Below are positions 33,141 to 63,700 of a DNA stretch of 64,000 bases, one piece after another. The notes under the pieces are model-generated. The model saw only the letters and a program-made list of their open reading frames with translations, was not told where the DNA came from and made no database searches. A program made the translations under genes and the position numbers. The stretch comes from Tubiluchus corallicola (taxonomy: Eukaryota; Animalia; Priapulida): contig JAQGDQ010000359.1 of NCBI GenBank assembly GCA_030141605.1, positions 175,242 through 239,241 of the forward strand, given 5' to 3'. Positions within the stretch are counted from its first letter, which is position 1. Each line of letters begins with the position of its first letter.

Positions 33141-35634
33141 CAGAATGCCTCAATAGACGTTTTCTATTACAATAAATGTACAACCCAATAACTTGGCATA
33201 CAAAAATAAAATTTTGCAAACATTTGAATATATATATCTATCCAAAAGACTGGCTTCAACAGGTTGTTTACATCAGGTTTCTGCTTGTTAAAAATTCATT
33301 GTGAAAATGACTTTCTAATCACTAACTACAAAAACTCACACGTTTTATAAACTACTCAGTAGCAGCTTTCCAGGTGTGCACACTAGGTTTACTTGGCTTA
33401 TTAAAATTTGGAAAGTGTATCCTTGAGGTAGGTCCGGGCGTGGGGTGATTTAGTTGCTTTGCTTTTCATGTTTGTCCAAGCATTTGAGCTAGAACACCAA
33501 ACAGAGTCAGCAGACACAGTTTTTCCTTACTAGCACCAGTGGTTGAGATAGTACAGTTTTCTGTCAAGCTGTTGAGCTTGCTGTTTTTGTGCCCAGCAGT
33601 ATGGCAACCTTCTTTCAAGAATGCTTATATAAAACAATGGCATAAATGTGAGAGTGCAACTTGCATGCTCATCTCAAGACCATGACTTCTCTTTAGTTGC
33701 CACTTCCTGCGAAGTTCAAGCTTGCCCTGCTCGCATTTTAAAGCATTTGCAAAAATTTGTTGTCAGCAAAATTTGTGCCTTTTATGAAACGCCTTTAGGA
33801 CAAACATGCTTAGCGAGAAAATTGTGCATGTTGGTCAAAGAGCTGAGGTCAAGAGTGCATACAGTATAGCTGTCATGCTGTAGTCAAGCATAGTCATAGT
33901 AAACTATACTGAAACCCAGTTGAAATGAGTGTTTGCATGATTAAGGTAAATTTCATTCGTTTTTTTTTTGTAAAACGTAAAATTCTGTGAATTGTTTGCC
34001 TTTGCATTTATTTAGATGATGTAGTTTTTAGAGTTATGCAAAGTTTTGTTTTACATTACTTGTCTGAATACCACCATTTAATGTTATGCAATTTGTTAAG
34101 TTACTCAGAAAATTGCAAGTTTTGATGTTTCAGGACAGTTATTATTTCTCACGTCCAAACAAACTGTTGATAAACGTAGCTATGCCAGTGTAATTCAAAT
34201 TGTTTAGAATCAAACTGTTCTACACTAAACAACTGAATTCAACACGAAATCAAATAAGCAGGTTGACAAGAGAAAGCTACAACACTCTCTATTTCAAACA
34301 CATTTTTCTCTAGTGGGCATTATTGCTAAATTCTTAAAAAAAATGTCAATTTAAACCAAAATTTCTCAGTGCATTTCTATAGGACTTTGTAGATTTGCAT
34401 ATTGCTTATGTTGGGTCTACATGCTGTGCAAGTATACCAGTGCATTTTCTTACATTAGTTGCAGGTAATGCTGATTATGGGGCAGAAGGCAGAGATACAA
34501 ACACTATGTAGCATTTCAGATAACTTTCTTACTGATGTCTACCTTCCAAATAAAATCAAGTATGGAGGTTGGATTTAGAAAACTGTAAAGGCTGTTTGTT
34601 ATGCCAGGCTTGTCTTTGTCTCATGTTTCTACATGATTGATTTGTTATAAGTGCTTGGTATGTGACTTTCTATCATGAATGTTCTTTTCGGTAAAATGCA
34701 AGATGATGGATAGATATGCACCTTGTTTGAGACAGTCAGCATTACTGTGAATAATAACTTTGATAACTTAACCTGTGTTAAAGGTAGAACTTGTCTAGCT
34801 TTGTATTTGCATCTGAATGATTTGAATGAGTTTTGCCCAACAATTTTTTGTGCATTTATTATTATTATTGTTACAGTTTGTAGAGCTGACAAACTTCTAA
34901 CTTTGTTTAAAAACGCATTTATTAAAACTGCTTTTATAAGAACAAGAGCTTTTAACAAAATAAAGCAACCAATTTCCTCGCCATGGCGTTCTGCTAATCT
35001 GTACCCTGTCCTTCTTTTTCTCTCCTCTGCTCCGTCTTCCTAATTTGCCCAACTAGTTCACTAATCAAGCTATATTGCATCTATGACTCAAGTACAGCTT
35101 AGTCAAGCACAACATTCGGCCCTCGCTACCTATCTGGTGTCCTCACCAGGCTACAAATATATCAAAGAACTAAAATACTATAATATACCATATGTTAGAT
35201 ACAAGCGCATATCGAGGAATGTCAACATAGTGCAGCCTACTCATTGCAACATATACGCCTAATGCAAATCTACAATATCTATCGAGCTTACAAAACCGTA
35301 ATTACTATATAGTTTGAATAAACTGAATAACTACATAGCCTAACAAAACTATAAGGTTACTACAAGTATTCTGATAAAGGCACTGCCAATCAATTCAGTA
35401 TGATCAAGAAAAATTACTGCCTATTCAGTAACTAGGCACTGTTCAACATGACTAATCTTAACCAATTTGTAGCAGTTGAAATGCACGAACACAAAAAAAG
35501 TATTACAACTTGACTTCGAAATAAGAGTATGCAAGCCTGAATACACAAATTTAACTAAACCTTTCAAACTTAAAACAATGGCATGTAAATCTGAAAACAC
35601 AAATCAACCAAATTTTCCACAAGTCCATATTGAA

Positions 35635-37172
35635 TTACTCCGTCACATAGTCTTGGTATCTAACAGGAGGTCTTATGGGTCGACCTGCTCTAGAATGTAC
35701 ATTTGGTTGATTCTCCACAACGATAGGTTCTACGGGAATATCACGCTCCAACTCATCATCACTAGAACTGAAATCACTACTGTCTATATCACTCACTACA
35801 GATTGAACTGCTTCATTGGCATCGTCTTCACACAAATTTGCCTTTTCCAACAGTTGATCGTCAACTGATCTTCGCTTAAAGTCTAGCTTTGTGTTGTTCT
35901 TAGAAACTAACTTCAGATTATGACCATGAACCCACATTGAATATCTTGCATTCGGTCTGCGCACACGGTAGTCAGGTGGACGAGCTTCCACAACACGAAA
36001 CGGGCCTTCAAAGCGACGAGAAAGCTTCCTCTGCGAGATTTGAAGTCCACTACCGCTACTAAATCACCTTCATTAAAGGACCCTCGTGGCTGGCCTTGAG
36101 CTCTCGACCGATTCTGATAATCACGAATATTCTGCTTGGCTTTTTCACATGTGGCAACCAAGTTTTCAGTCAGCTTTACATTATAGCTTTTGAAGTCAGT
36201 TACTACAGACAATTCTTGACTCTCATTTGCAACTATTTCACTCTCTAGTGGCTGTCTGGCTACTTTCCCAAATACTAGCTCATATGGGCTACACCCAGCA
36301 GTTGAATGGACTGATGTGTTGTATGCAAAAACAATCATCGGCAAGAACATGTGCCAGTCATCTTTGGCATTGTTCACATAGTGTGTCAGGGCCTCACAAA
36401 TGGTAGAGTTTACTCTCTCGCACTGCCCATTTGTCTGAGGTCTATGGGGTGATGTGCGAAGCTTTTTAATTCCTAGTCTCTCACAAAGTTGCTTTACCAA
36501 CTGCGCTTCAAAGTTTGCACCTTGATCTGTAAGTAAAGTCTTTGGGATACCACATCGTCCAAAGAACTCAATTAAACACTCAACAATACTCTCTGTTGTC
36601 TGGCGGACTAGTGGAAATAGCTCTACATGTTTGCTGAACAAGTCGGTTACGACTAAAATATACTGTTGGCCTCGAGAATTCCGGTTGAGCTTCAAGACAT
36701 CAGCACTGATCTCCTCACACTTATCTCCAAAAACTTCAATGGTGCCTTGTGATTCTTTCACTGGCTGTGCATTACGTTTCACACAAATGCAACTAAAGCA
36801 TGACTTGATGTAGTTCCTGACATCTTCCTTCAAGTTATACCAATAATACAACTTGGTTAACTTATCAACTGTACGACGAATTCCAAAATGTCCAGAAAAT
36901 GGGCTGTCATGAGCTAATTTCAACACTTTCTCACGCATTGACAATGGTATCAGTTTTTGGCTAATTAGGTGGCCATCTGTCTGTCGTAAAATTTCTCCAT
37001 CTCTCACGGAAAGTTTAGATTTCTCCACTGGATGCAAATAAAATTTCAATTCAGTCGACTGCTGATCTTGGGAAGGCTCAGGTTGCTTTCCTGACAAAAT
37101 ATCACGAAGCAAATAAAGATCTTTGTCACTGCCAGTGGCTTCGGCAAGAGATACATCATTAGTGTGGATACG
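35635..37172 (-). pseudogene. Gypsy-1 integrase (H2C2 finger, DDE core, GPF module), frameshifted near 36027
   Basis: AHDSPFSGHFG...CFSC, DVL, TDQGANF, NGQCERVN; continues after a 1-nt deletion as KLSRRFEGPFRVVEARPPDYRV. Confidence 0.9.
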
Positions 37173-39167
37173 TCAGATTCTACTCAATGCATCTACATGT
37201 GGTATCTGATCTCCAGATCTGTGTCTTACTTCAAAATCAAACTGGTCTAACCACAAAACCCACCTAGCTAAGCGACCACTGGGATCTTTAAGTTTTCGTA
37301 GCCAAAGCAAGGATCTATGATCGGTGACTAAGACGAATCTCTTCCCCACAAGATAATGCTGAAACTTTTTGACTCCATTAATCACTGCTAACAACTCTTG
37401 TTCAGTAGTCGTGTAATTTTTCTCTGCATCACTAAATTTCCCTGATGCACAGTACACTGGATGCTCTTGCTTACCATGGCCCTGAGATAGTACCGCACCC
37501 CATCCAGTCTTACTGGCATCTGTAGTCAATATAAATGGCTGACTGAGATCCGGATGACGAAGAACTTCGGTACTTGTTAGTTGTCTTTTCAATTGCTGGA
37601 ATGCTTGCTCACATTCTGGTGACCACAGGAATTGAACATCTTTCTTTGTCAAGTTCGACAGAGGACTAGCTATAGAGGCAAAACCAGGAACAAAATGTCG
37701 ATAGTAACTGCAAAAACCCAAAAACTGTCGTACTTCATGGGCATTCTTCGGCTGCTGCCAAGATTCTACTACTCTGGCTTTCTTATCTTGTGGCATTATT
37801 CCTTCATGACTTAGACGATGACCTAAAAATTCTATTTCAGTTTGTGCCAAAGCACACTTCTCTGGATTTAATTTTAGTTCTGAAATCTCTATACGACTAA
37901 GAACTTCACGAAGATCACTTATGTGCTGATCAAAGGTAGAACTAAATACTAAAATGTCATCAAGATATACTAACATGGTTTTCCACTGAAGACCATGGAA
38001 TATGTTCAGCATAAGTCGTTGAAATGTGGCTGGGGCCTCTGACAGACCAAACGGCAATACATTAAACTCGTAGGTACCATTTTCTGTAATAAACGCTGTT
38101 TTAGCACGAGAACTTGGATCCACTTCCACCTGCCAATAGGCTGCACTCTGATCAAGGCTCGTAAACCATTTCGCACCCTGCACACTAGCTAAAAGCTCAT
38201 CTATTCTTGGTAATGGAAATGTCGACCGCTCTGTCACTGCATTCAAACGACGATAATCTACACAAAATCTATACTTGCCATTTTCTTTTCTCACTAAAAT
38301 AATTGGGCTCGACCAAGGTGATTCACTATCTCGTATTATATGACGTTTCTTCATGTCACTAATCTGATCTGCTACGATGTCTCTCAGGTGAACCTGAGTT
38401 CGGTATGGTTTTTGCTTAATAGGTGGACCACTAGTCTCTATATGGTGCTGTACAATATCTACTCTACCGATTTCACCATCTACTGAAAACACTGTAGGAA
38501 ACTCTTCTAACAATTCAGTGATCTTTTGTTTCTGTGAATCATTGAGATGATCCAACCTTAATTTAGTCTCTAACTTGGATTTCTGATTATGAGCACTAGG
38601 TGATTCTGCTAGAATTGGGACATCTTGACTGCAAACACCAACTTCAATTTCACCTAGAATTTCACCAGCTCTGATCACTACTGGTTCTTCAGATAAGTTT
38701 ACTAGACGTACTGGCAGTGTTTCTGATTTAGCATCAACACAAGTTCTTGCAATGCAGACACCTTGAAACTGTTGTGCACTAGCTGGCTCGATGTACGTGA
38801 CTTGGGTACGCCGTGTTACAAAGTTTCCTATAGGCGGCAATGCCGGCAAAACCATTTCTGACTCAGATGGAATAACTGTAGTTTGCGAACAACGTACAAC
38901 TGCCTTACCACTGTATGTTGTAACGTTCTGACCAGCTAATGTGCATATTCCTCGTTTATAGTCGATGACGGCTTCTGCCCTAACTAAAAAATCCATACCA
39001 AGGATAATTTCATCACTGCATTCGGTAACTATACACTGTGTCACCACTTCAAGGTCGGCACTTACTGGCACTTTTAGTTCCATTAGGCCATAACTCAGCA
39101 AAGAAATTTCTCTGTTAGCCGTGAGAACTGTAATTGTACTCTTATCTTGTCTCCATGGCAAGTTCAA
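37173..39167 (-). pseudogene. Gypsy-1 pol segment: protease C-terminus, reverse transcriptase, RNase H, bounded by in-frame stops
   Basis: ILGMDFL, RFCVDYRRLN, LPFGL, YLDD, TDAS, TDHRSL, DALSR. Confidence 0.93.
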
Positions 39168-40136
39168 CTAGTCAACAAGTAATTTGCTAATCAAGGACTT
39201 CTCAGCCCCGCTGTCTAAAACTGCAAAAATATTACGATTTTCTATTCTTAATGAGATGTATAAAGCCTTTTCTTTTTCTGTTTGACAAGATCTTCTATTC
39301 AAGGTGGCACCTACTGCTGTTGACTGTGCTGACTCACTACGTATCTTTGAGCAATTTGCTGCTATGTGTCCCACGCTACGACATGTTCTGCATTTGGTGT
39401 AGCAGACATCTGCTTTACGACCAGGGAGAGTACATCGAGTACACTTTTCTCTCAGTTGTTTACGTTCCACAACTACGGACTCTCGATGATCTCTAGCTAA
39501 TGACTTATTACGACACTCTGCTGCGCGATGCCCTTCTTTGTGGTATTTAAAACAAGTCATTCGACGAACATAGTTGCCTCTCCCACGCTCATTTATTGAT
39601 TGTCTCTGTTTGTCAACAACCTCACGACTAATTTGCATTTTATGTAATTTGGCAATAGCTCCCTCCAGTGTAGTGATATGTGCATCATAAAATCTAGTAC
39701 GCCACTCTGGTTTTAAGCCTTCAATAAATTTTTGCACGCAAAATCTCTCTATAACATTTCTGTCGGTTATCTCAGGATTTGCTGACTTAAACAAGCGAGT
39801 TAATTCATTGGCATAGGCATGCGCACTTTCATCCTTTTTCAAATTTCTCTGATTGAATTCAGTCAGATATAAACGCTGGGATTCCTCTGGGGTATAAACT
39901 CGCTTAAGTGCATCAACTAACTCTGTATACGTATTTGGCACTTCACCATCTTGGCGAGTTAACCCGTCCATAACATTATCAGCCTGCCCAACCAACAATG
40001 CTGGCAGTACTTGGAATTTCTTTTCATCATTCCAATCATTGGCTACTGTAACTCGCTGAAAACGATTTATAAATCTTGAAAAATCGCTTGTGCCATCAAA
40101 TTCTGGTGGCTGCACAACATTTGACGCCTGTGCTAT
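39168..40136 (-). pseudogene. Gypsy-1 gag with three CCHC-type knuckles plus protease N-terminus
   Basis: PEFDG...RF...NDW; CRTCRSVGHIAANC; LDSGA. Presumed start codon reads ATA near 40136; TAG falls inside the protease. Confidence 0.88.
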
Positions 40137-41127
40137 GCTGCTAGATTGCTACTGACTTACTCGTATTACTATTACTGACGAAGTTTCAAAACTGATAGAC
40201 GTAGCTTATCCCACCGCTGTATGTTACAGTTTGTAGAGCTGACAAACTTCTAACTTTGTTTAAAAACACATTTATTAAAACTGCTTTTATAAGAACAAGA
40301 GCTTTTAACAAAATAAAGCAACCAATTTCCTCGCCATGGCGTTCTGCTAATCTGTACCCTGTCCTTCTTTTTCTCTCCTCTGCTCCCGTCTTCCTAATTT
40401 GCCCAACTAGTTCACTAATCAAGCCATATTGCATCTATGACTCAAGTACAGCTTAGTCAAGCGCAACATTATTAGTATCATCATCATCATCATCATTATT
40501 ACCGTATTTTCCCGTGTATAAGAGACCCTTTTTTGCACACTTTAACCTCAGCACACCCTCACATATTCCACTAACTACCATACCAGACAATTCCAAACCA
40601 GTTGATAAGTCCATTGACCCTCCTTCGACTGCATCAGCTCCACCCAACCCAGTTATACCACTACGTCGTTCAACTCGGCAGAGGACAACTCCTCAGTGGC
40701 ACAAAGACTTTGATATGTCTGGTAATTTGGTCAGTTATCAGTCTTCGACGTATGCTACCTCCGTCCAAGACTTAGGGGGGGGGGATAGAGGATCTTGAAG
40801 ATTTCAGCATATGAAGAGCACCCGTATTGCTGTTTGCCAGGAGGCAATTCTTAACACATTTAACGATAAGAACTCCATGCAGTGTCGAGCAGATGTTTAA
40901 CATTTAGAACGGTATATTATTTGCAGTTATACTTTTGTGATTAAAGGAACAATGCTTAAATTAGTATAATTCGAAACATTTATATTTGTACTTATGCGGT
41001 ATGGCAGTATTATATGTAATTATTTTGTTGTTGTTATTTCAGCCTGATCATTGCTGCAATATCATAAATAAACCACTTTGATTGATTCAGCAAAAACTTC
41101 CATAGTTATTTATGATCAGGCGGAAGA

Positions 41128-43026
41128 ATGCCAATTGTTCAATGCCCAATTACTGGCTGCAATTATGCAACAGAGGACTTGTCGGAGGCTATCGTTCTCG
41201 AACTCCTGCAAATACATCGTGGTAGTCACACCACGAACACAGAGGCGGCACCACCCGCACATTCTGCTCCAACTGCGAAAATTGAAAAAGTGAAAAGGCC
41301 TACTGTATCTGCCGCCGGTACCAGCGAAGAATGGGCATATTTTACCACACGTTGGCAAGAATACGTAGATGCCACTGGTATCACTGGTAAAGACAGAGTA
41401 ATTCAATTATTAGAATGTTGTGATGAAACGTTACGTAAAGATCTCACTCGTTCTGCTGGTGGCAGTCTCAGTGGCAAAGCAGAAGATGTAGTTCTTAATG
41501 CTATCAAAAAGCTCGCTGTTCGCGTTGAGAACACCATGGTGGCTCGTGTAGCATTGCATGATATGCGACAAGACCGTGAAGAACCTATCCGTGCATTCTG
41601 CGCCCGTCTACGAGGACAAGCCGGCATCTGCAATTATGAAGTGAAATGTCCCGAGTGCGACACCAGTGTCAGCTATACCAACGAAATAATTCGTGACTGT
41701 ATCACACGCGGCATCGCAGATCCAGAAATCCAACTGGACATTCTCGGCGACAAAAATCAAGTCATGGAAATCGAAGAATTATTAATGCTAATTGAAAGCA
41801 GAGAATCTGGAAAAAGATCTGCTTCAAAACTCTTCGATACCCACAATGCTGAAGCAGTGCGTAGCTCATACAGACGAACAACAAGCAATCTAGCCAAAGA
41901 TAAAACATCTGAACCATGCAGCCACTGTGGAAGGCACGGTCATGGAAGTGGTTCTGATTTTCAATTACGACAGGACAAATGTCCAGCTTTCGGCAAAACC
42001 TGTACATATTGCAGTCGCAGAAACCATTTCGCTCCGGTATGTAGATCTAGAAATAAGCCAAAACATGCTGTTCCAGACCGTGACAGAGGTCGTGAACAAT
42101 CCACCTCACTGGGTGAACAGGGAGCTGTGTTCGATACATTGTGTTCATTTACACCACACGTACATGAAAAAAATAGCCGTCGTACAGTTCCCCTTAGTCA
42201 TCACCTATATGACCAGATGTGTAATAGTTGGCTACGCCAACCATCGAAGCCTCAACCATTTGTTACACTGCGCATGTCAATAAACCCAAGTGACTACACA
42301 GCCCTTGGTTTTCGCTGTGGCAGACAACCAAATTCTTGTATAATTTCAGCAATAGCAGACACCGGATGCCAGAGTTGCTTGTGCAGCCTTAAAATCCTCA
42401 CTCGCATAGGCATATCAGAGCAACATCTCATACCTGTCACCATGCGCATGCAAGCTGCAAATGATCGTGGAATTAACATCCTTGGCGCTGCTATCCTAAG
42501 ATTCACTGGTACATCTACGGCTGGCAAACAACTGGAAACCAGGCAGATCGTATATGTCACCGATACTTCAAACAAATTATACATTAGCCGTGAAGCTTGT
42601 ATTGCACTCGGAATGATCACAGAAAGCTTTCCAAAGATTGGTGAGGTGTGCAACACGCTAGAGATATCATCATCAAACAGCACTTCATCTGAGACACATG
42701 ACATATCCAAACCCCAACAAAACAGTAGTGGTTTGACATCTGAGTGCCACTGTCCACGACGACAGCTGCCACCTACACCACCCTCCCAACTGCCATTTTC
42801 ACCAACGCAAGAAAATTTGCCAAAACTGAGACAGTACCTCCTTGACACTTACAAGGCAAGCACATTCAACATATGTGAGCACCAACCTCTCCCACTTATG
42901 GAAGGGCCCCCTTTGAAACTCATGGTGAATTCTGATGCCACCCCGTGGCACATCACAACCCCATCCCAGTCGCCTTGCATTGGCAGAAACAAGTCAAAGC
43001 AGATATCGATCGCGACGTCCACCTAG
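41128..43026 (+). CDS. Gypsy-2 gag-protease (632 aa as read; joins pol by a frameshift near 42942)
   Basis: N-terminal CPITGC...H finger; CSHCGRHGH...C and [14 protein letters not shown] knuckles; ADTGC protease site. Confidence 0.92.
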
Positions 43027-46000
43027 GAGTCTTGGAACCTGTCCCCATTGGCGAACCTGTCACTTGGTGCCATCGAATGATTGTATGCCCCAAGAAAAAC
43101 GGCCAACCCCGCAGAACTGTTGACTTTCAAGCCCTAAATGTTCATGCCACAAGAGAAACCCACCACACCCAGTCACCATTTCTGCAGGCAAGATCTGTAC
43201 CCCCAAACATGAAGAAAACGGTACTTGATGCCTGGAATGGCTACCACAGTGTCCCAATCCGTACAGAGGACCGCCATCTTACTACGTTTATCACTCCGTG
43301 GGGCCGATATCGCTACAAAACAGCCCCACAGGGCTACATTGCTTCGGGTGATGGTTACTCAAGACGCTATGACGAGATTGTGTCACACGTACCCCGTCAC
43401 ACAAAATGTATTGATGACACACTCCTCTGGTCACCTACAATCAAAGAAAGCTTTTTCCAGGCAATAGAATGGCTTGACATATGTGGCCGTCATGGCATCA
43501 CTCTTAATCCTGACAAGTTCATCTTTGCTGAAGACACAGTTGAATTTGCAGGATTTGAAATTACACCCAATAGTGTCCGCCCTTGTCGGCGATATCTCCA
43601 AGCTATACTAAAATTTCCCACTCCAAAAAACATCACTGATGTTCGATCTTGGTTCGGCGTAATAAACCAAGTTAGTTATGCTTTCAGTATGGCTGACCGA
43701 ATGCTTCCATTCCGTGCACTCCTGAAACCCGGGACCCCATTCACATGGAATGCACAACTAGATGAGATATTTAATGAGTCCAAGGCACTCATTGTTCAGG
43801 AAATAGAAGACGGTGTTCGAATTTTCGATAAAACACGGCCGACATGCTTGGCCACTGATTGGTCAAAGTCAGGCATTGGCTTCTGGCTGCTCCAAAAACA
43901 CTGCAAATGCCCCAAATCAACTCCTTTTTGTTGCCGTACTGGGTGGAAAATCACTCTTGTGGGAAGCCGATTCACCACACCAGCAGAATCACGATATGCC
44001 CCAATTGAAGGTGAAGCCCTAGCAGTGGCAGATGCCCTTCAAAAAGCTAGGTACTTTGTCCTGGGTTGTACAAACCTGACTATTGCAGTGGACCACAAAC
44101 CATTGCTCAAGATCTTCAGCAACAGATCCCTTGATGACATGCCCAACCCTCGCCTTAGGAATCTGAAGGAAAAGACGCTCCGTTTCAAATTCCAGGTCAT
44201 ACATGTCCCTGGAGCAAAACATCGAGCTGCAGATGGCATCTCTCGACACCCGTCTTGCCCTGGCCATGCTGGTGATATGCCTTTGCCTGACGACATTGCC
44301 ACAATTCGACAGGACACTAATATTACCTTGCCAAACCTACCTACTTTCTTTTTGGAAGGTATTCGTTGTCAGGAAACGCCTTCAGATTCCTTTGAGACAT
44401 CCTTAATATGTTCAGCTGCCACAAAGCTTGCAAACTTCAAATCAGTGACATGGGATATGGTCCGAGTTGCTACAACAAGTGACACCACCATGAACTTATT
44501 AAGAGACATCATAGAAACTAACGTGCCAGAAGCACGTCAGGAGTTCCCAGCTCCAATACGTGAGTATTACCAGTTCAGGGAACACCTCCACACCATCGAT
44601 GGTGTTATTCTCTATAAAGAACGCATCGTTATTCCCCCATGCCTACGTGACACTGTGCTTTCATCACTCCATGCAGCACACCAAGGGGTCTCATCCATGA
44701 TTTCTCGTGCAGAATCATCAGTATTCTGGCCAGGCATAACGACAGCCATATCGGCACTTCGAAGTCGTTGCCAAGAATGCAACCGTATTGCACCCTCACA
44801 ACCGGCAGCACCGCCCGTTCCCCCAGTTTTGCCGGTATACCCATTTCAGTGCATCTGCGCTGACTTCTTTCATTACAAGGGCGTCTACTACCTCGTTGTT
44901 GTTGACCGTTATTCCAACTGGCCCATTGTCGAACGTTCTCCAATTGGGGCCACTGGTCTCATTGCCTGCCTCCGCCGAGTTTTTGTCACTTACGGCATTG
45001 CTGAGGAACTGGCCTCAGATGGTGGCCCAGAATTTATTTCATTCCAAACACGCCAGTTTTTTTCAGACTGGGGTGTCCATCATCGTTTCTCTTCGGTTGC
45101 CTTTCCTCACAGCAATTGTAGAGCCGAATTAGGCGTTAAGACCGTTAAGCGCATGATTATGAATAATACTGGCCCCCAGGGAGACCTTAATACAGACTTG
45201 TTTCAACGAGCAATCCTGCAGTACAGAAACTGCCCAGACAGAGATACCAAACTCTCACCTGCCCAGTGTCTGTTTGGCCGCCCTATACGAGACTTCATCC
45301 CTATAATACCCGGTCGCTACCAACCTCATAACACTTGGCAGGAATCACTACTAGCCCGAGAAGAAGCCTTGCGTAACAGACACATGAAAGCATCGGAACG
45401 GTGGACTGAACACACAAAACGCTTACCCCCACTAGTTGTTGGTGACAAGGTACATTTACAAAATCAGACTGGGAAACATCCTACCAAATGGGACAAGTCT
45501 GGTATAGTCATTGAAGTCCGTCAATATGACCAATATGTCATCAAGGTGGATGGCTCGGGCAGAGTAACACTTCGGAATAGACGTTTTCTTCGGAAATATG
45601 AACCAATTCATCCACCACGCCCCAGTATCTCTATTGATACTGACCTTGCTTACAATGACAGATGCTTACCAGTTGAGAAACCTGCAACATCAACCACTTT
45701 GCCACCTAAAACAAACCAACGCCCTAATAATTCAACCTTAGTGTCACCCAAACACATGGATTTCAAACAAACAGACAAACCTGTTGGACCAGAGGACCCT
45801 CTCCCTAACCTCAGCACACCCTCACATATTCCACTAACTACCATACCAGACAATTCCAAACCAGTTGATAAGTCCATTGACCCTCCTTCGACTGCATCAG
45901 CTCCACCCAACCCAGTTATACCACTACGTCGTTCAACTCGGCAGAGGACAACTCCTCAGTGGCACAAAGACTTTGATATGTCTGGTAATTTGGTCAGTTA

Positions 46001-46049
46001 TCAGTCTTCGACGTATGCTACCTCCGTCCAAGACTTAGGGGGGGGATAG
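42945..46049 (+). CDS. Gypsy-2 pol: RT, RNase H, integrase (1034 aa open)
   Basis: [34 protein letters not shown]...CQEC, ADFF, SDGGPEF, RAELGVK. The ORF runs through the PPT and stops on the first TAG of the 3' LTR. Confidence 0.95.
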
Positions 46050-46475
46050 AGGATCTTGAAGATTTCAGCATATGAAGAGCACCCGTATTGCTGTTTGCCA
46101 GGAGGCAATTCTTAACACATTTAACGATAAGAACTCCATGCAGTGTCGAGCAGATGTTTAACATTTAGAACGGTATATTATTTGCAGTTATACTTTTGCG
46201 ATTAAAGGAACAATTCTTAAATTAGCATAATTCGAAACATTTATATTTGTACTTATGCGGTATGGCAGTATTATATGTAATTATTTTGTTGTTGTTATTT
46301 CAGCCTGATCATTGCTGCAATATCATAAATAAACCACTTTGATTGATTCAGCAAAAACTTCCATAGTTATTTAGAGGGTATGCATTCAATGTCACAGTCT
46401 GCGACAATGTTTGAAACCAGGTTGTGCTCCTATCAACGTTTAATTATGCAGTCCACTTTTAAATAGAGTTCTAAG

Positions 46476-46871
46476 TAGGGATGAGCATTCTCAAGCAGAA
46501 AACTAACTCGAATCGAATCGAATTTGTGACTTTCGAATTCGAAACGAACCGAATTTCAGTATTTCGAATCCGAATCGAATACGAATTGAGTTTGAAAGAT
46601 GTTCGAACAAGTTTTCGAACCACTAGTAAAAAGTGGTCTTACAAAGATTACTTGATTTTGTTCTGCAGTAAAACCGCTATTAGTTTACTAAAAATTTTGC
46701 ACAGAAATCACAGCTAAATTGAACTAATTGCGTGACGTTTCAAATGTTTTAATGATAAAGAACATAAGTGGCTGAAGTGCTGAATTACTCGAATCTATAA
46801 TTTTAGCTTCGAATCGAATTCGATCTAAAAAACTCGTTCGAACAAATTCGAACGTTCGATGCTCACCCCTA
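46476..46871. mobile_element. MITE, hAT-like, with CGAATCGAAT subterminal repeats
   Basis: TAGGGATGAGCAT ... ATGCTCACCCCTA termini; same family as 25429-25797. Confidence 0.8.
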
Positions 46872-47330
46872 GTTCAACTTCAAACTTATACGAAAACCCA
46901 TTTTACAGTTTCATATAGAAAAATTTAGACATGCGTTGGCAAAATAAAAGATTTCTGTTTTGTAGTTACCTGCAGACAGTTTGGCGCTTTGCGGCAGCTG
47001 CGTGTGTTTCGTGGACAAGTGTCCAATTCAGAAGTTCTCAGACTCGTAGCAGAAATATTAGTAGATGAATATAGCAAATATTTAATGATTTCCCGGTAGT
47101 ATAGTCTGCAAGTGCTTTGTTGGCTACACGCAACCCCTTCGGCAGTTTCAGAACTGTGTATAAACGACAAACCAATCCATTTACTTGATAATATTATGTA
47201 GGTTTTTAGTATGACTCTGCCTGATTTCAGTCTAGTCATTGCTAAAAAATTGCTTGCTTTCTTTATATTGAAGGCACACATAAGACCGTTAACACTTTCA
47301 TAGTCTGTTAACACACCGCCAACAAATGTA

Positions 47331-57776: not shown

Positions 57777-60700
57777 TGTGACGCCGTGTAATAACTAAAT
57801 CAGGACGTTAAGAAATCAGAGTACTGTATTCAGGGTTCTCGAGCGTTTCCGTCACTTTTATATGCTAAATCTACAGGATAATCATTCATTTGTGTAGGCT
57901 ACGTGAATCCGTGTCACTGATGAAACACTTGTGTGCACGTGCAAATTATTTAATCAGAACGAAAACGGAACTAAAAGCTAATATTTAGATTTAGAATTTA
58001 ATCAGTAAAACAACAATAGCAAATTAAATTGATAACAATTTCGAACAATACCTAATTCCCCCAAAGTAACGTTGGCCGGCTACGCTTCTGTCTCTCATCA
58101 GGCTTCCGGATCTATCAACCACGCTCTTGAGTCTCCAACCATACGGCATCGGCTTTTCATCTCCAGCAGTCAGCCACGTCCTCGCCAGCAACTCTTTGCC
58201 AATGGTCACCAATCCAGCCTCTGCATGGACCACGCTTTAAAACTGCTCCAGCAATCCAGCGGTTGAACTCGTACCTGGTTGCCTCGGGATTGAACTCTCG
58301 CCTGGTTGACTCGGACTTCCAGTAATAAAGCCAGATATCGTCCTTTTGCAGGGTGACAAACAGAACCTTCAGTTCAGACAAACAGACAGACCATTGGTCC
58401 AAGTAGAACTGGTCCACGACTGGTTTTCCACTACTATTCAACGAGAATTTTAGTCCTATTCTGCAGGTAGAAATATGGTTACCAAACACTTGCTTCTTGG
58501 AATGTCAAGACAGTGTCATCACAGCAAACAACGAATAAACAAAAGTAGACAAAACCATTGCCTTTATGACAAATCATCTCACTGCATACGAGTACCATTA
58601 AAGACAGGTTCACACCAAACTTGGTGTTCAGCCATATAAAATAACCTCAGGATGTGGACTAACCAGCAAAACTCCACCACCCTGTAACTTTGACAGTCAG
58701 AACATAACTAGTGTAAAACACGAACTCTGTAGTAAGATCCCAAAACAGGTTGAAGCCATTTGGTATTCGAATTTTCAGGTAACCTAATTACAGGTAAGCA
58801 GAGAAATAAGCGGCCAGAGCCATCTAGTGTCAAAATCTTACAAAAACACACAATGTAATATAAGTTTAAATAAACAGTGCAATAAATCAATCAGGTACTT
58901 AGATCATTATTTATGCGCACGCAACAACATACGAAAGATATATCAAAATAGGTGTTGCGACAATGATGGGTGGTATAACCGATCATCACATAGCATCTCT
59001 CTCCTTTTAAAACTCTGAAGGAGTTTTCACAACATAGCGACACCTATATTGAAACGATTGAAGAAAATAAAAGCTAAACAATGATTTGCTAACTAAATGG
59101 GCTATCTTAATTACTCTGAGAAGCAACTTCAATCAATACTGATACAAAATAAATCTACGAATAACACAATAAACGACTTTACTTCTGCCATTTCACTTTT
59201 AAAGGCTTTATGTTGTTTAATTAAAAAAACAATTTCTTCGTATAAAACTATCAAAATTAGGCAAAATTTATAGGCGTGAAAGTGCATCCGCCACAACATT
59301 CATTCGTCCCGGAATATTCTCCACCGTGTAAGAGTATTCCTGGAGAATGAGCAACCAGTGACACAACCGGCGGTTATTACGCTTAATGCGAGGAAGGGCC
59401 AACAAGCTGCGCTGGTCAGTTCGGATAGTAAAATGCCGCCCTTCCAGGAAGTATCTCAACTTCTCCACACAGTAAACAACTGCTAAACACTCCACTTCTA
59501 CCACACTGTAATTACGCTCAGTAACAGTTAATTTTCTGCTGAGGTCTGTTATAGGTAGTTCGCCATGTTCACTTTGTTCTTGGGATAGTACCCCACCTAC
59601 ACCACTCAAAGATGCATCAGTAGTCAGCATGAAAGGCTTCATGAAATCTGGAGAGTGCAATACAGTGTCGGAGCCAAGGCAGTCTTGCAATTCCACAAAA
59701 CTCCGCTCGCAGGCTTCTGTCCACTCAACTTTGGTTGGAGCGCTTTTCTCAAGTAGCTGAAAAAGAGCAGCAGCCTTGGTACTAAACATAGGAATGAACC
59801 TACGGTAGAAGCCAACAAGTCCCAAGTAGGCCCGTACTTGTTTCTTGTTTTGTGGACGTGGGAAGTTGTGTATGCGTAGAATCTTGTTGGGTTGTGGCCA
59901 AGTATATTCCTGCAGTACTCGCTTAGTAGTTTTTCCAATGCCTAAATGTCCAGCCATCTTATTATCATGTGCCAGGGAGAGCACCTCCAGTCTCCTTGTC
60001 TTAGGCACAACCAGTAGTTCTCGTGGTTCTAGGCTAGGACGCTCACATGCCAGGTAATAAAGTACTCCTTCACGAAGATAGTAGCCTTTGCCTTCTTTCC
60101 TCACAATTTCTTCAGTGCGTGCATTGTCGCGTAAGTTCCTTAAAGTTACATCATCTACTTGTTCTTGGTGTAACTGTGATTTACTGAGCACAGTTAGGTG
60201 CATTTGGTTTTGCTTTGACTCGTGCTCAGTCAGTGGAGGTGCTTTGATTCTGTCTTGCAAAAACTCTTGTTGGAGGGTCTTGTCTCTTTTCTCAAGGTTT
60301 TGCAGTTTCGCAGCTTTACTGCGTGTAACAACTAATGCCGTGTGCAGCTTGTCACCACTACTGTTTTCATCCTGCTTCATAGCATGCTTTTTAAATTGGC
60401 AGGAGGAATCCATGTTGGCCACAGTAGCTGTTGAAGCTGGTTTCGGTACACACTGGAAGTTCTTACTCCTCTTTGCCGGGAATGGAGTAACTGCCGTCCG
60501 AAAGTCATTACCAAGTAAGAAGTCAACTGGAAGGTCACCAGAGACAGCCACTGTCAAATACCCACTGACCATCGGACTTTCAACCTCCGCAATAGCCATG
60601 CGTACTTCCTTGGAATCTCCATGTACACACTTAATCGTCCTGGTTGACTCATCAACATATTGCTCTGGCCTTACCAAATCTGGGTGAACAAGGCTAGTGC

Positions 60701-63700
60701 ATGCCCCAGTGTCGCGCATGCATTTCACATTCTTGCCATTCACAGATGCCCAGCAGCAATATTCATCTTCAGAAGATGCAATAATGTTGCGCAACTTCTT
60801 TGTGGTTTTTCTTGAACCACCTTCCTGGGTCTTCTTAGCATCACCTTTAGCTAAAAAATTCCGACCCATCGTGCTTCTGCCTTTCCCGGTGGCTTCAGCA
60901 CCTGCCATGCTTCTTCTGCATTGATTTCTTTTATGTCCCAACTCGCCGCAGGAATAGCACTTCACATTAGATCCACTATACGTGCTTCTTCCTCTTGCTA
61001 AGCTACTACCATCGTGCATTGGCTGCTTGAATCCTTTCTTAAATGTGTGAGGTTGCATGACTTTTAGGCCACCCTGTATCGACATCACAGATGCTTGGTA
61101 CAAGTCTGCTTTTTCCACAACATCATCGAAGGAATGAAGATCTTGCCTCCGGACCCATTCACACATGTCACGTGACATCAGTGTTAAGACTTGTTCCTTA
61201 CAGACCAATTCCACAACTTTATCTACAGAGTCAGCATCTTCTGCATTTCTGTACTCATTGTAGGCACGAACAAGTCTTCTGCCAACTTGCTGAAAAGTCT
61301 CATTGGCCCTCTTTTTTATAGCACGAAAACGTTTCAAGTAGCTCTCGCTGGTTAATACATATGCTGCCAAAAGTGCTTTCTTCACAGCATCGTAGTTGCT
61401 CATTTGCTCAGGAGGTATTTGGTGAAAAGCAATGGAAGCTTTCCCGGTGAGTGCAGGCCCTAAAGATGCTGCATATACGTCCTGAGGAAGCTTATTTGCA
61501 GCTGCAGTTGATTCAAACTGACTTAAGAAATCGTCAATGTCTTCAGCGTTTTCATCAAAGACCCTCATTTTGATACGCTGGATGGGTGCATGCAATTGCG
61601 GGTTAACAGGAGGGGAAGGGTTTGCGACCTGTAATAAAGTGGGTGCGATCTCAATTCGTGCAAGCTCGGCACGCAATTTTTCAAGCTCAACCCGTTCCTG
61701 ATGTTCAAGTTGCTTAATACGTAACTCTTTGTCCATCTGCATTTGCATCTCCATCTGCTTGACAGCTCGACGCTCTTCGCTGCGTAGCTTTTCCAGTGTA
61801 ATCATAACTGAATACCTCTCTGAGGGGGGTAATTGCTGCATTCCGTCAGTAATGTCATCTACCATAAATGACAAGTCGGGCGGAGGTGTGTGTTCTAACC
61901 TCGTTGCCACAGTTGGCTTCCTTTTCACGCCACCTGAAATAGGGTTCACGGGAGTTGCTGCATTTAAATTAGTTTCAACATATGTACCCCCGTCCAGGTC
62001 CGCATCACCAAGGCCTTGAATTGCTTGTGTTAGCGCAGGTTGCGTCATATTCAAAGGAAGCTGAGCTTGTAGGATAGCAGCTATTAAAACAGGTTTAGTC
62101 GCTGTTGAGGCAACTGTGATCCCGCATTCAGCTATAATTTCTTTTAGCTGTGACACTTTTAAAATATTTAACTCGTTTTCAGTGTATGCGTTTGCTGCCA
62201 TGGTAATTTACCGTTTCGTTTTATTATTAATTTAATAAGGTTAATACAGCAGTCAAATACTATGTGCAATTGTATTTACCTTATAGTATTAGATTCTATG
62301 TAATTAATTTTTTTGCAAAGTATTTATTTGCGTTTTGTTTCGTTTTAACTTTGCTATTACACTTGTGAAAATTTATTCACCACTCACGTGGTTTCTTTTA
62401 CTCTTCTCTCACTCTGTACACAAGCAAATTGCTCTGGTTACATACAGCTAGTACTGTGCAAAATAAGTCCCGAACCGAACAGGAAGTTACAAGCCGTTCA
62501 ATATATTACTAGGGCTCACCAATTCGTAAACAAGCTTTTGCGTCGCATGCACTTCACAGTCAGACAATGTGACCTAGTTTACCTATAGTTCGAAATCTCC
62601 TACTGCAATGAAACTACTAACTATTTGCGCAGAGAAATTTATACCTACAGCACGGTCAACGCAAGTGTCAAAAGTTCTAAGCTTACTCAGTAGAAATATT
62701 ATATTATCAGTTCTGCAAAGGGCAGAGATGCTATTTTTTTCAACAATAAACAGAATAAATAATCTGCACAGCGGTTTCATTCAGTGGCAGGCCTTAATTA
62801 TCCCACCGCTGCCACCAAATTGTGACGCCGTGTAATAATTAAATCAGGATGTTAAGAAATCAGAGTACTGTGTTCAGGGTTCTCGAGCGTTTCCGTCACT
62901 TTTATATGCTAAATCTACAGGATAATCATTTATTTGTGTAGGCTACGTGAATCCGTGTCACTGGTGAAACACTTGTGTGCACGTGCAAATTATTTAATCA
63001 GAACGACAACGGAACTAAAAGCTAATATTTAGATTTAGAATTTAATCAGTAAAACAACAATAGCAAATTAAATTGATAACAATTTCCAACAATACCTAAT
63101 TCCCCCAAAAGTAACGTTGGCCGGTTACGCTTCTGTCTCTCATCAGGCTTTTGGATCTATCAACCACGCTCTTGAGTCTCCAACCATACCGCATCAGCTT
63201 TTCATCTCCAGTAGTCAGCCACGTCCTCGCCAGCAACTCTTTGCCAAACGTCACCAATCCAGCCTCTGCATGGACAACGCTTTAAAAGTGCTCTAGCAAT
63301 CCAGCGGTTGAACTCGTACCTGGTTGCCTCGGGCTTGAACTCTTGCCTGGTTGCCTCAGACTCCCAGATATCGTTCTTTTGCAGGGTGACAAACAGAACC
63401 TTCAGCTCAGACAAACAGACAGACCATGGGTCCAGGTAGAACTGGTCCTCGACTAGTTTTCCACTACTATTCAGCGAGAATTTGAGTCCTATTCTGCAGG
63501 TAAACATATGGTTACCAAACACTTGCTTCTTGGAATGTCAAGACAGTGTCATCACAGCAAACAACGAATAAACTAAAGCAGACAAAACCATTGTCTTTGT
63601 AATAAATCATCTCACTGCATACGAGTACCATTAAAGACAGGTTCACACCAAACTTGGTGTTCAGTCATATAAAATAACCACAGGATGTGGACTAACCAGC

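Follow-up and report, generated by a model that had tools for sequence, protein, structure and literature searches.

The window, i.e. the whole stretch of 64,000 nucleotides of Tubiluchus corallicola DNA analyzed here, contains an LTR retrotransposon of the Ty3/gypsy type, which is located on the plus strand together with the following features:

40543 to 40785, plus strand: extra upstream copy of the pol tail and polypurine tract, equal to 45806-46046 except for a longer G run
40786 to 41112, plus strand: 5′ LTR of 327 bp with TA..TA ends, which are fixed by the 5-bp target duplications of relatives
41011 to 41018, plus strand: TATA-like TATATGTA, recognized by sequence only; putative promoter element
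41037 to 41043, plus strand: initiator-like pyrimidine-CA (TTTCA at 41037-41041), with predicted +1 at A41041
41041 to 41051, plus strand: predicted self-primer of 10-11 nt; its paired part is GCCTGATCAT (41042-41051)
41052 to 41092, plus strand: predicted stem P2 (41052-41056 with 41088-41092), enclosing AATAAA at 41067-41072
41095 to 41107, plus strand: predicted hairpin P3 in U5, with a 4-nt linker after it
41112 to 41121, plus strand: primer-binding site ATGATCAGGC, the complement of the element's own LTR
41128 to 43026, plus strand: gag (two zinc knuckles) and protease, with the frame of the window copy breaking near 42930-42945
42945 to 46049, plus strand: reverse transcriptase (RT; motif CIDD), RNase H, and integrase; chromodomain absent
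46036 to 46046, plus strand: polypurine tract abutting the 3′ LTR
46047 to 46373, plus strand: 3′ LTR

Both LTRs form part of a longer direct repeat of 570 bp (40543-41112 and 45806-46373, 99.1% identity). This repeat was rejected as the LTR itself, since its initial 243 bp consist of the pol tail and the polypurine tract. Its upstream part is thus the remnant of a tandem copy preceding the 5′ LTR, leaving an LTR proper of 327 bp that begins with TAGAGG and finishes with TTTA. The same arrangement, spanning about 1 kb, was found in one relative (L006). No target duplication was detected at the LTR ends of the window copy. Other repeats lie nearby. On the minus strand, a conventional gypsy element with the RT motif YLDD (about 34869-40470) stands head to head with the self-complementary element and was included as a row in the tree described below. 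Another minus-strand LTR element (about 57777-63690) carries integrase-like sequence before RNase H and has lost its RT by deletion; its conventional TGG primer site near 62800-62820 provides a contrast inside the same window. Just downstream of the 3′ LTR, a high-copy repeat with inverted ends occupies 46474-46875.

An earlier, sequence-only reading of this locus had proposed that the element primes its own reverse transcription, as no TGG primer site was seen from the LTR to the gag ATG at 41128. Inspection of the sequence agrees with the lack of such a site. The 10-mer GCCTGATCAT was also correctly described as the exact reverse complement of ATGATCAGGC, the TATA-like motif, TTTCA, and AATAAA are located where they had been reported, and the 3′ repeat does stop at 46373, the equivalent of base 41112. 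As A41112 is both the last base of the LTR and the first paired base, the exact end of the primer is uncertain by one base. Taken by itself, a 10-bp match is weak evidence: the 64-kb window has five places with inverted 10-mer repeats that contain at least five G+C and are separated by 30-200 nt, this one included. The significance of the match derives from its position and from the relatives rather than from the 10-mer alone.

Folding of positions 41042-41130 gave -23 kcal/mol (z = -3.70), which was equaled by none of 200 shuffled sequences. The predicted fold of this 89-nt leader is a three-way junction comprising the 10-bp duplex, P2, the U5 hairpin, and the 4-nt linker. Two extra pairings had been suggested earlier. 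The pairing of TTGCTG with CAGCAA fits the duplex (stem 41052-41056/41088-41092), but the helix between 41061-41071 and 41106-41116 competes with the duplex and has a probability of about 0. As a family trait, the latter helix was discarded, since it reaches at least 9 bp in only one of 40 families, namely that of the window itself. The primer site opens with an ATG (41112-41114), which is out of frame with gag and buried in the duplex; an ATG opens the site in most other families as well.

For comparison, 96 related loci were assembled, 80 of them kept out of 166 in metagenomes and 16 in genome records. Leaving out ten loci without a gag start and two with a mis-mapped start, the remaining 84 loci and the window made up 49 families at a threshold of 80% gag identity. 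The named hosts of protein relatives were mussels, a clam, sea urchins, an octocoral, a sea anemone, and a priapulid. Scans of viral contigs yielded no member of the clade. L081-L096 are animal retrotransposons on 16 contigs of bacterial genome records (MAGs), and these contigs are likely host DNA that was binned into the MAGs. Relatives mostly display a single ORF of about 1550-1700 aa, whereas the reading frame of the window copy is broken. Of 120 sequences, 114 have CIDD or CVDD as their RT motif. LTRs of two-LTR relatives have TA..TA ends. Among 20 two-LTR loci, perfect 5-bp target duplications flank 11 (from four families, with eight loci from a single one; L087 is a carrier), and four of five bases match in three more; the six loci without a match include the window and two for which the script picked a wrong end.

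The complementarity seen in the window recurs throughout these relatives. In 40 of the 49 families, a duplex of 9-19 bp starts on the terminal A of the LTR; for L073, the 13-bp duplex located where the primer site is expected was taken instead of a top-scoring AT repeat. The nine families without a 9-bp duplex comprise (i) five with short or cut upstream sequence; (ii) one with an unmapped start; (iii) one with an apparently deleted junction; (iv) one with tandem repeats; and (v) L038, which pairs over 7 bp before a mismatch. When the site was anchored by the LTR-end motif alone, a perfect complement of at least 10 nt was present in 50 of 63 motif-bearing loci, compared with none of 407 control AT sites in gag. 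RNAalifold recovered the helix unaided from a MAFFT alignment of 40 leaders.

Covariation between the LTR arm and the primer site, which had been named earlier as a check on the proposal, proved strongly positive. Changes on both sides occurred at 13 of 15 pairs (209 cells), and the covariation score was 0.87, compared with 0.18 for shuffled alignments (0/500 as high). Pairing amounted to 92% in register but to 30-44% when the partner was slid. At positions 5-11, arms and sites paired at 99% within a family and at 34% across families, with complementary runs of at least 9 nt in only 0.3% of cross-family comparisons. On a gag tree, a quick one with many open forks, parsimony required that positions 3-11 underwent compensated change at least 124 times. 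In four loci (L030, L031, L035, and L039), U3 holds a second copy of the primer site about 30 nt before the arm, which could pair with the arm of the 3′ LTR.

Based on the location and covariation of this duplex, we consider it very probable that the Mag-related Ty3/gypsy element primes reverse transcription with a stretch of its own LTR instead of a tRNA. Transcription would start at about A41041. The initial 10-11 nt of the transcript (in relatives, 9-16 or more) would pair with the site to give a three-way junction whose two other arms are P2 and the U5 hairpin. The conserved A-U-U at the 3′ end of the primer arm would then be cleaved by a nuclease, for which the RNase H of the element is the best candidate, as in Tf1. 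From this new 3′ end, RT would extend through U5 and the rest of R before jumping to the 3′ end. Plus-strand synthesis would later copy the primer, so that the binding site would be rewritten from the arm in each cycle. For the window, the predicted primer piece is 11 nt long (A41041-U41051). The modeled probability of its terminal U-A pair is 0.53, so that cleavage may occur before or after U41051; in the former case, the TA end would result directly.

An anchored P2 stem of at least 5 bp was found in 29 of 40 families (42% in shuffles) and a P3 stem of at least 4 bp in 34 of 40 (60% in shuffles), i.e. both are moderately enriched at their anchored positions. Whole-loop folding was no better than that of shuffled sequences (mean z = -0.08), and only 20 of 40 families have a canonical poly(A) signal in the loop.

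The 5′ end of the primer was examined through the extent of pairing, which is 95% at position 11 but declines to 50% at position 15 and 28% at position 16. Pairing ends at a Y-A dinucleotide, or 1-3 nt inside it, in 31 of 40 families, compared with 42% at random offsets, which fits an initiator. A pyrimidine tract with YAG is also the mark of a splice acceptor, and the primer could instead lie within a spliced or longer leader, its 5′ end not being the transcript start; self-priming would be kept. In 25 of 40 families the arm is bordered by a YAG, mostly with a T-rich tract. In L069 (1241-1565), the block AG|GTATAT lies within the LTR and precedes the AG of the arm by about 144 nt; the block is also found in L070 and L071, and is conserved between L069 and L071. 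Joining at this upstream block would lengthen the pairing in L069-L071 from 11 to 15 bp, and a similar block of the window (about 40903-40915) would add 1 bp. However, a virtual junction gained six paired bases in only one of the 25 families tested (L069) and at most two in 22, so that splice-built primers are unsupported as a general rule and the gain in L069 is possibly due to chance. Moreover, the LTR before the arm measures only about 35 nt in several relatives, which in L064 and L026 is too short to accommodate an intron upstream of the AG, and CAT or CAC replaces CAG at the arm boundary of several families. A spliced or longer leader is thus an unlikely, although not negligible, origin of the primer.

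A further variant retains the same arm as primer, but has it supplied by the 3′ LTR or by another RNA molecule within the particle. Both LTRs contain the arm, and covariation is equally compatible with pairing in cis and in trans. One young family, whose copies are 96-99.9% identical, is informative here. In L024, an arm base is new in both LTRs and the site is still the old one; in L027 and L029, which share 99.2% identity with L024, arm and site have both changed. These copies fit the intermediate and the end state that re-copying of the site from the primer would produce, although the path from L024 to L027 is a single event and could reflect a recombinant. New arms in both LTRs with an old site, corrected afterwards, fit a primer taken from the 5′ LTR with a lag of one cycle. 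As pairing also stops near the initiator-like base, an origin in the 3′ LTR or in a second molecule seems quite improbable.

The composition of the duplex bears on whether it could be a regulatory structure acting in translation, packaging, or poly(A) occlusion, with a host RNA priming at another place or at the conserved ATGAT. AATAAA lies in the loop closed by the duplex, which also conceals the out-of-frame ATG at 41112, and the first five positions of the primer site are fairly conserved. A structural helix would nevertheless tolerate G-U pairs. Across positions 1-11, 436 of 440 cells are Watson-Crick pairs, two are G-U, and two are mismatched, a count biased by a selection rule that allowed G-U but favored Watson-Crick; the other predicted stems contain 65 G-U among 422 pairs (15%). 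Near-absence of G-U is expected of templated copying of the primer into the site. Besides, the duplex starts on the last base of the LTR, the only place where priming can occur, in 40/40 aligned families, and a tRNA site would require more than five conserved bases. We therefore regard a purely regulatory role as very improbable.

All 40 sites begin with AT, and TGG occurs within 8 nt in only three of them, inside the self-duplex. Priming by a tRNA half or fragment, with a secondary LTR match, has a precedent in some copia lineages (PMC6317226) but is hardly credible here, given 38 distinct site 10-mers in 40 families, each matching its own LTR only, and no match to the Rfam tRNA model in 40700-41300. 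ARAGORN made a single doubtful tRNA call in the window and 19 loci.

Priming from the element's own LTR is known from chromoviruses, and the element was therefore placed by its proteins. As stated in the earlier reading, a chromodomain is lacking and the RT motif is CIDD: none was found in the window tail or in five of five full-length relatives, whereas it was present in the control L097. Bit scores to the SURL-like L100 exceeded those to the chromovirus L097 for RT-RNase H (157 and 77), integrase (154 and 34), and Gag (55 and 29). In an unrooted RT-RNase H tree of 19 rows, the clade sits on a long stem (0.93, support 100/100), followed by a sister group and the Mag-like rows, with the branch of chromoviruses and their neighbor beyond (100/99). 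This phylogeny, another check named earlier, thus parts the element from chromoviruses and groups it with Mag-like elements; a single clade with the chromovirus rows, which were the stand-ins L097, L102, and L103 with Tf1 and sushi absent, was rejected (AU p = 1.2 × 10−24, lnL -91). The first tree, obtained by a quick search, had 37 rows, 18 of which were left out of the 19-row tree. P0320 and P0388 we take to be Mag-like. The sister group (P0381, P0364, P0377, and P0387) displays [IV]VDD as its RT motif and sits between the clade and the other Mag-like elements. L097 was identified as Maggy and L100 as SURL by matching rows by eye to a supplementary alignment (PMC11673190). Covariation and the RT-RNase H tree together support a Tf1-like strategy that would have evolved independently, as the sequence-only reading had suggested.

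Mag elements are generally described as using TGG tRNA sites. From these the clade differs by its long stem and the lack of a tRNA site, although the Mag lineage (clades A, B, and C; SURL; MolGy3 and MolGy11 in PMC6238403) remains closest in RT-RNase H, integrase, and Gag and shares the order PR-RT-RH-IN. Unnamed Mag-related clades have been reported from molluscs and annelids, and the accessible parts of these reports do not mention self-priming (PMC6238403, PMC8220671). Motif searches for a named clade (A, B, C, MolGy, or LGF) in the supplements at hand, PMC8556966 among them, came up blank. The elements probably belong to unnamed MolGy or LGF clades.

To our knowledge, Tf1 is the only element for which self-priming has been shown, while predictions exist for its chromovirus relatives and for one plant copia lineage. 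According to the literature cited here, the Tf1 transcript's initial 11 bases prime after an RNase H cut (PMC7175516), the site begins with ATAAC and is copied into cDNA ends (PMC11042837), and the primer region of Tf1-type elements adopts a pretzel structure (PMC10085805). Tf1 and Tf2 of Schizosaccharomyces pombe, Tj1, and Tf1/sushi elements resemble the present clade in having an LTR-complementary primer site of about 11 nt next to the 5′ LTR (PMC10085805, PMC7175516), and Tf1/sushi sites also start with AT and adjoin a U5 stem (PMC11042837, PMC10085805). Unlike Tf1/sushi, the clade has no chromodomain, a C[IV]DD RT, and TA..TA instead of ..CA ends. Compared with the Tf1 pretzel, its three-way junction has a moderately supported U5 stem but no support for the third duplex, as pairing of the sequence downstream of the site with the loop showed no excess in 37 families (5.2 versus 5.4 in shuffled sequences). 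In every respect accessible to sequence analysis, the element works like Tf1, and it is not a Tf1/sushi member. Self-primers have also been described in yeast and vertebrate Tf1/sushi elements, Tcn1, and TAR copia elements (PMC6317226). TAR copia (Houba and Osr-1) and Tcn1 of plants likewise have predicted self-priming with an LTR-site complementarity of at least 10 bp (PMC6317226); they are a precedent for independent origin, but belong to another superfamily or to a chromovirus lineage and reside in plant hosts. Troyka and Kuafuorterviruses are similar as LTR elements of aquatic animals with a single gag-pol ORF, atypical ends, and an atypical RT motif. According to PMC12440569 and PMC11673190, they differ in CG..CG ends, 3-bp duplications, and IADD, VADD, or LADD motifs. 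Membership in these groups was ruled out by the TA..TA ends, the 5-bp duplication, and the C[IV]DD RT of the present clade.

Since vertebrate Tf1/sushi elements are already listed as self-primed (PMC6317226), self-priming in animals is not new by itself; what appears new is the lineage. The searchable literature, outside of which Repbase Reports and subscription journals fall, yielded no account of self-primed Mag-like elements from animals (the accessible parts of PMC5341516, PMC2864245, PMC6934838, PMC2836005, and PMC10045372 included). A previous description is possible, at clearly less than even odds. Repbase Reports is said to have once named self-primed non-chromovirus Gypsy elements. 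A wider proposal, whose chances we put a little short of even, is that of a large undescribed Mag-related clade of marine animals that would combine self-priming independent of Tf1, a three-way-junction substrate of its own, TA..TA ends, a site whose rewriting from the primer at every cycle lets the pair drift freely, and, in at least one subfamily (L069-L071), a spliced LTR-intron primer. If true, a second, distant gypsy lineage would indicate that abandoning tRNA priming is easy to evolve again, and would bear on what RT-RNase H needs for cutting an RNA duplex as well as on escape from silencing by tRNA fragments. The clade also contains dozens of naturally occurring primer variants that can be tested. 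With TA..TA ends and no tRNA site, such elements would be missed by LTR finders that require TG..CA ends and a tRNA match.
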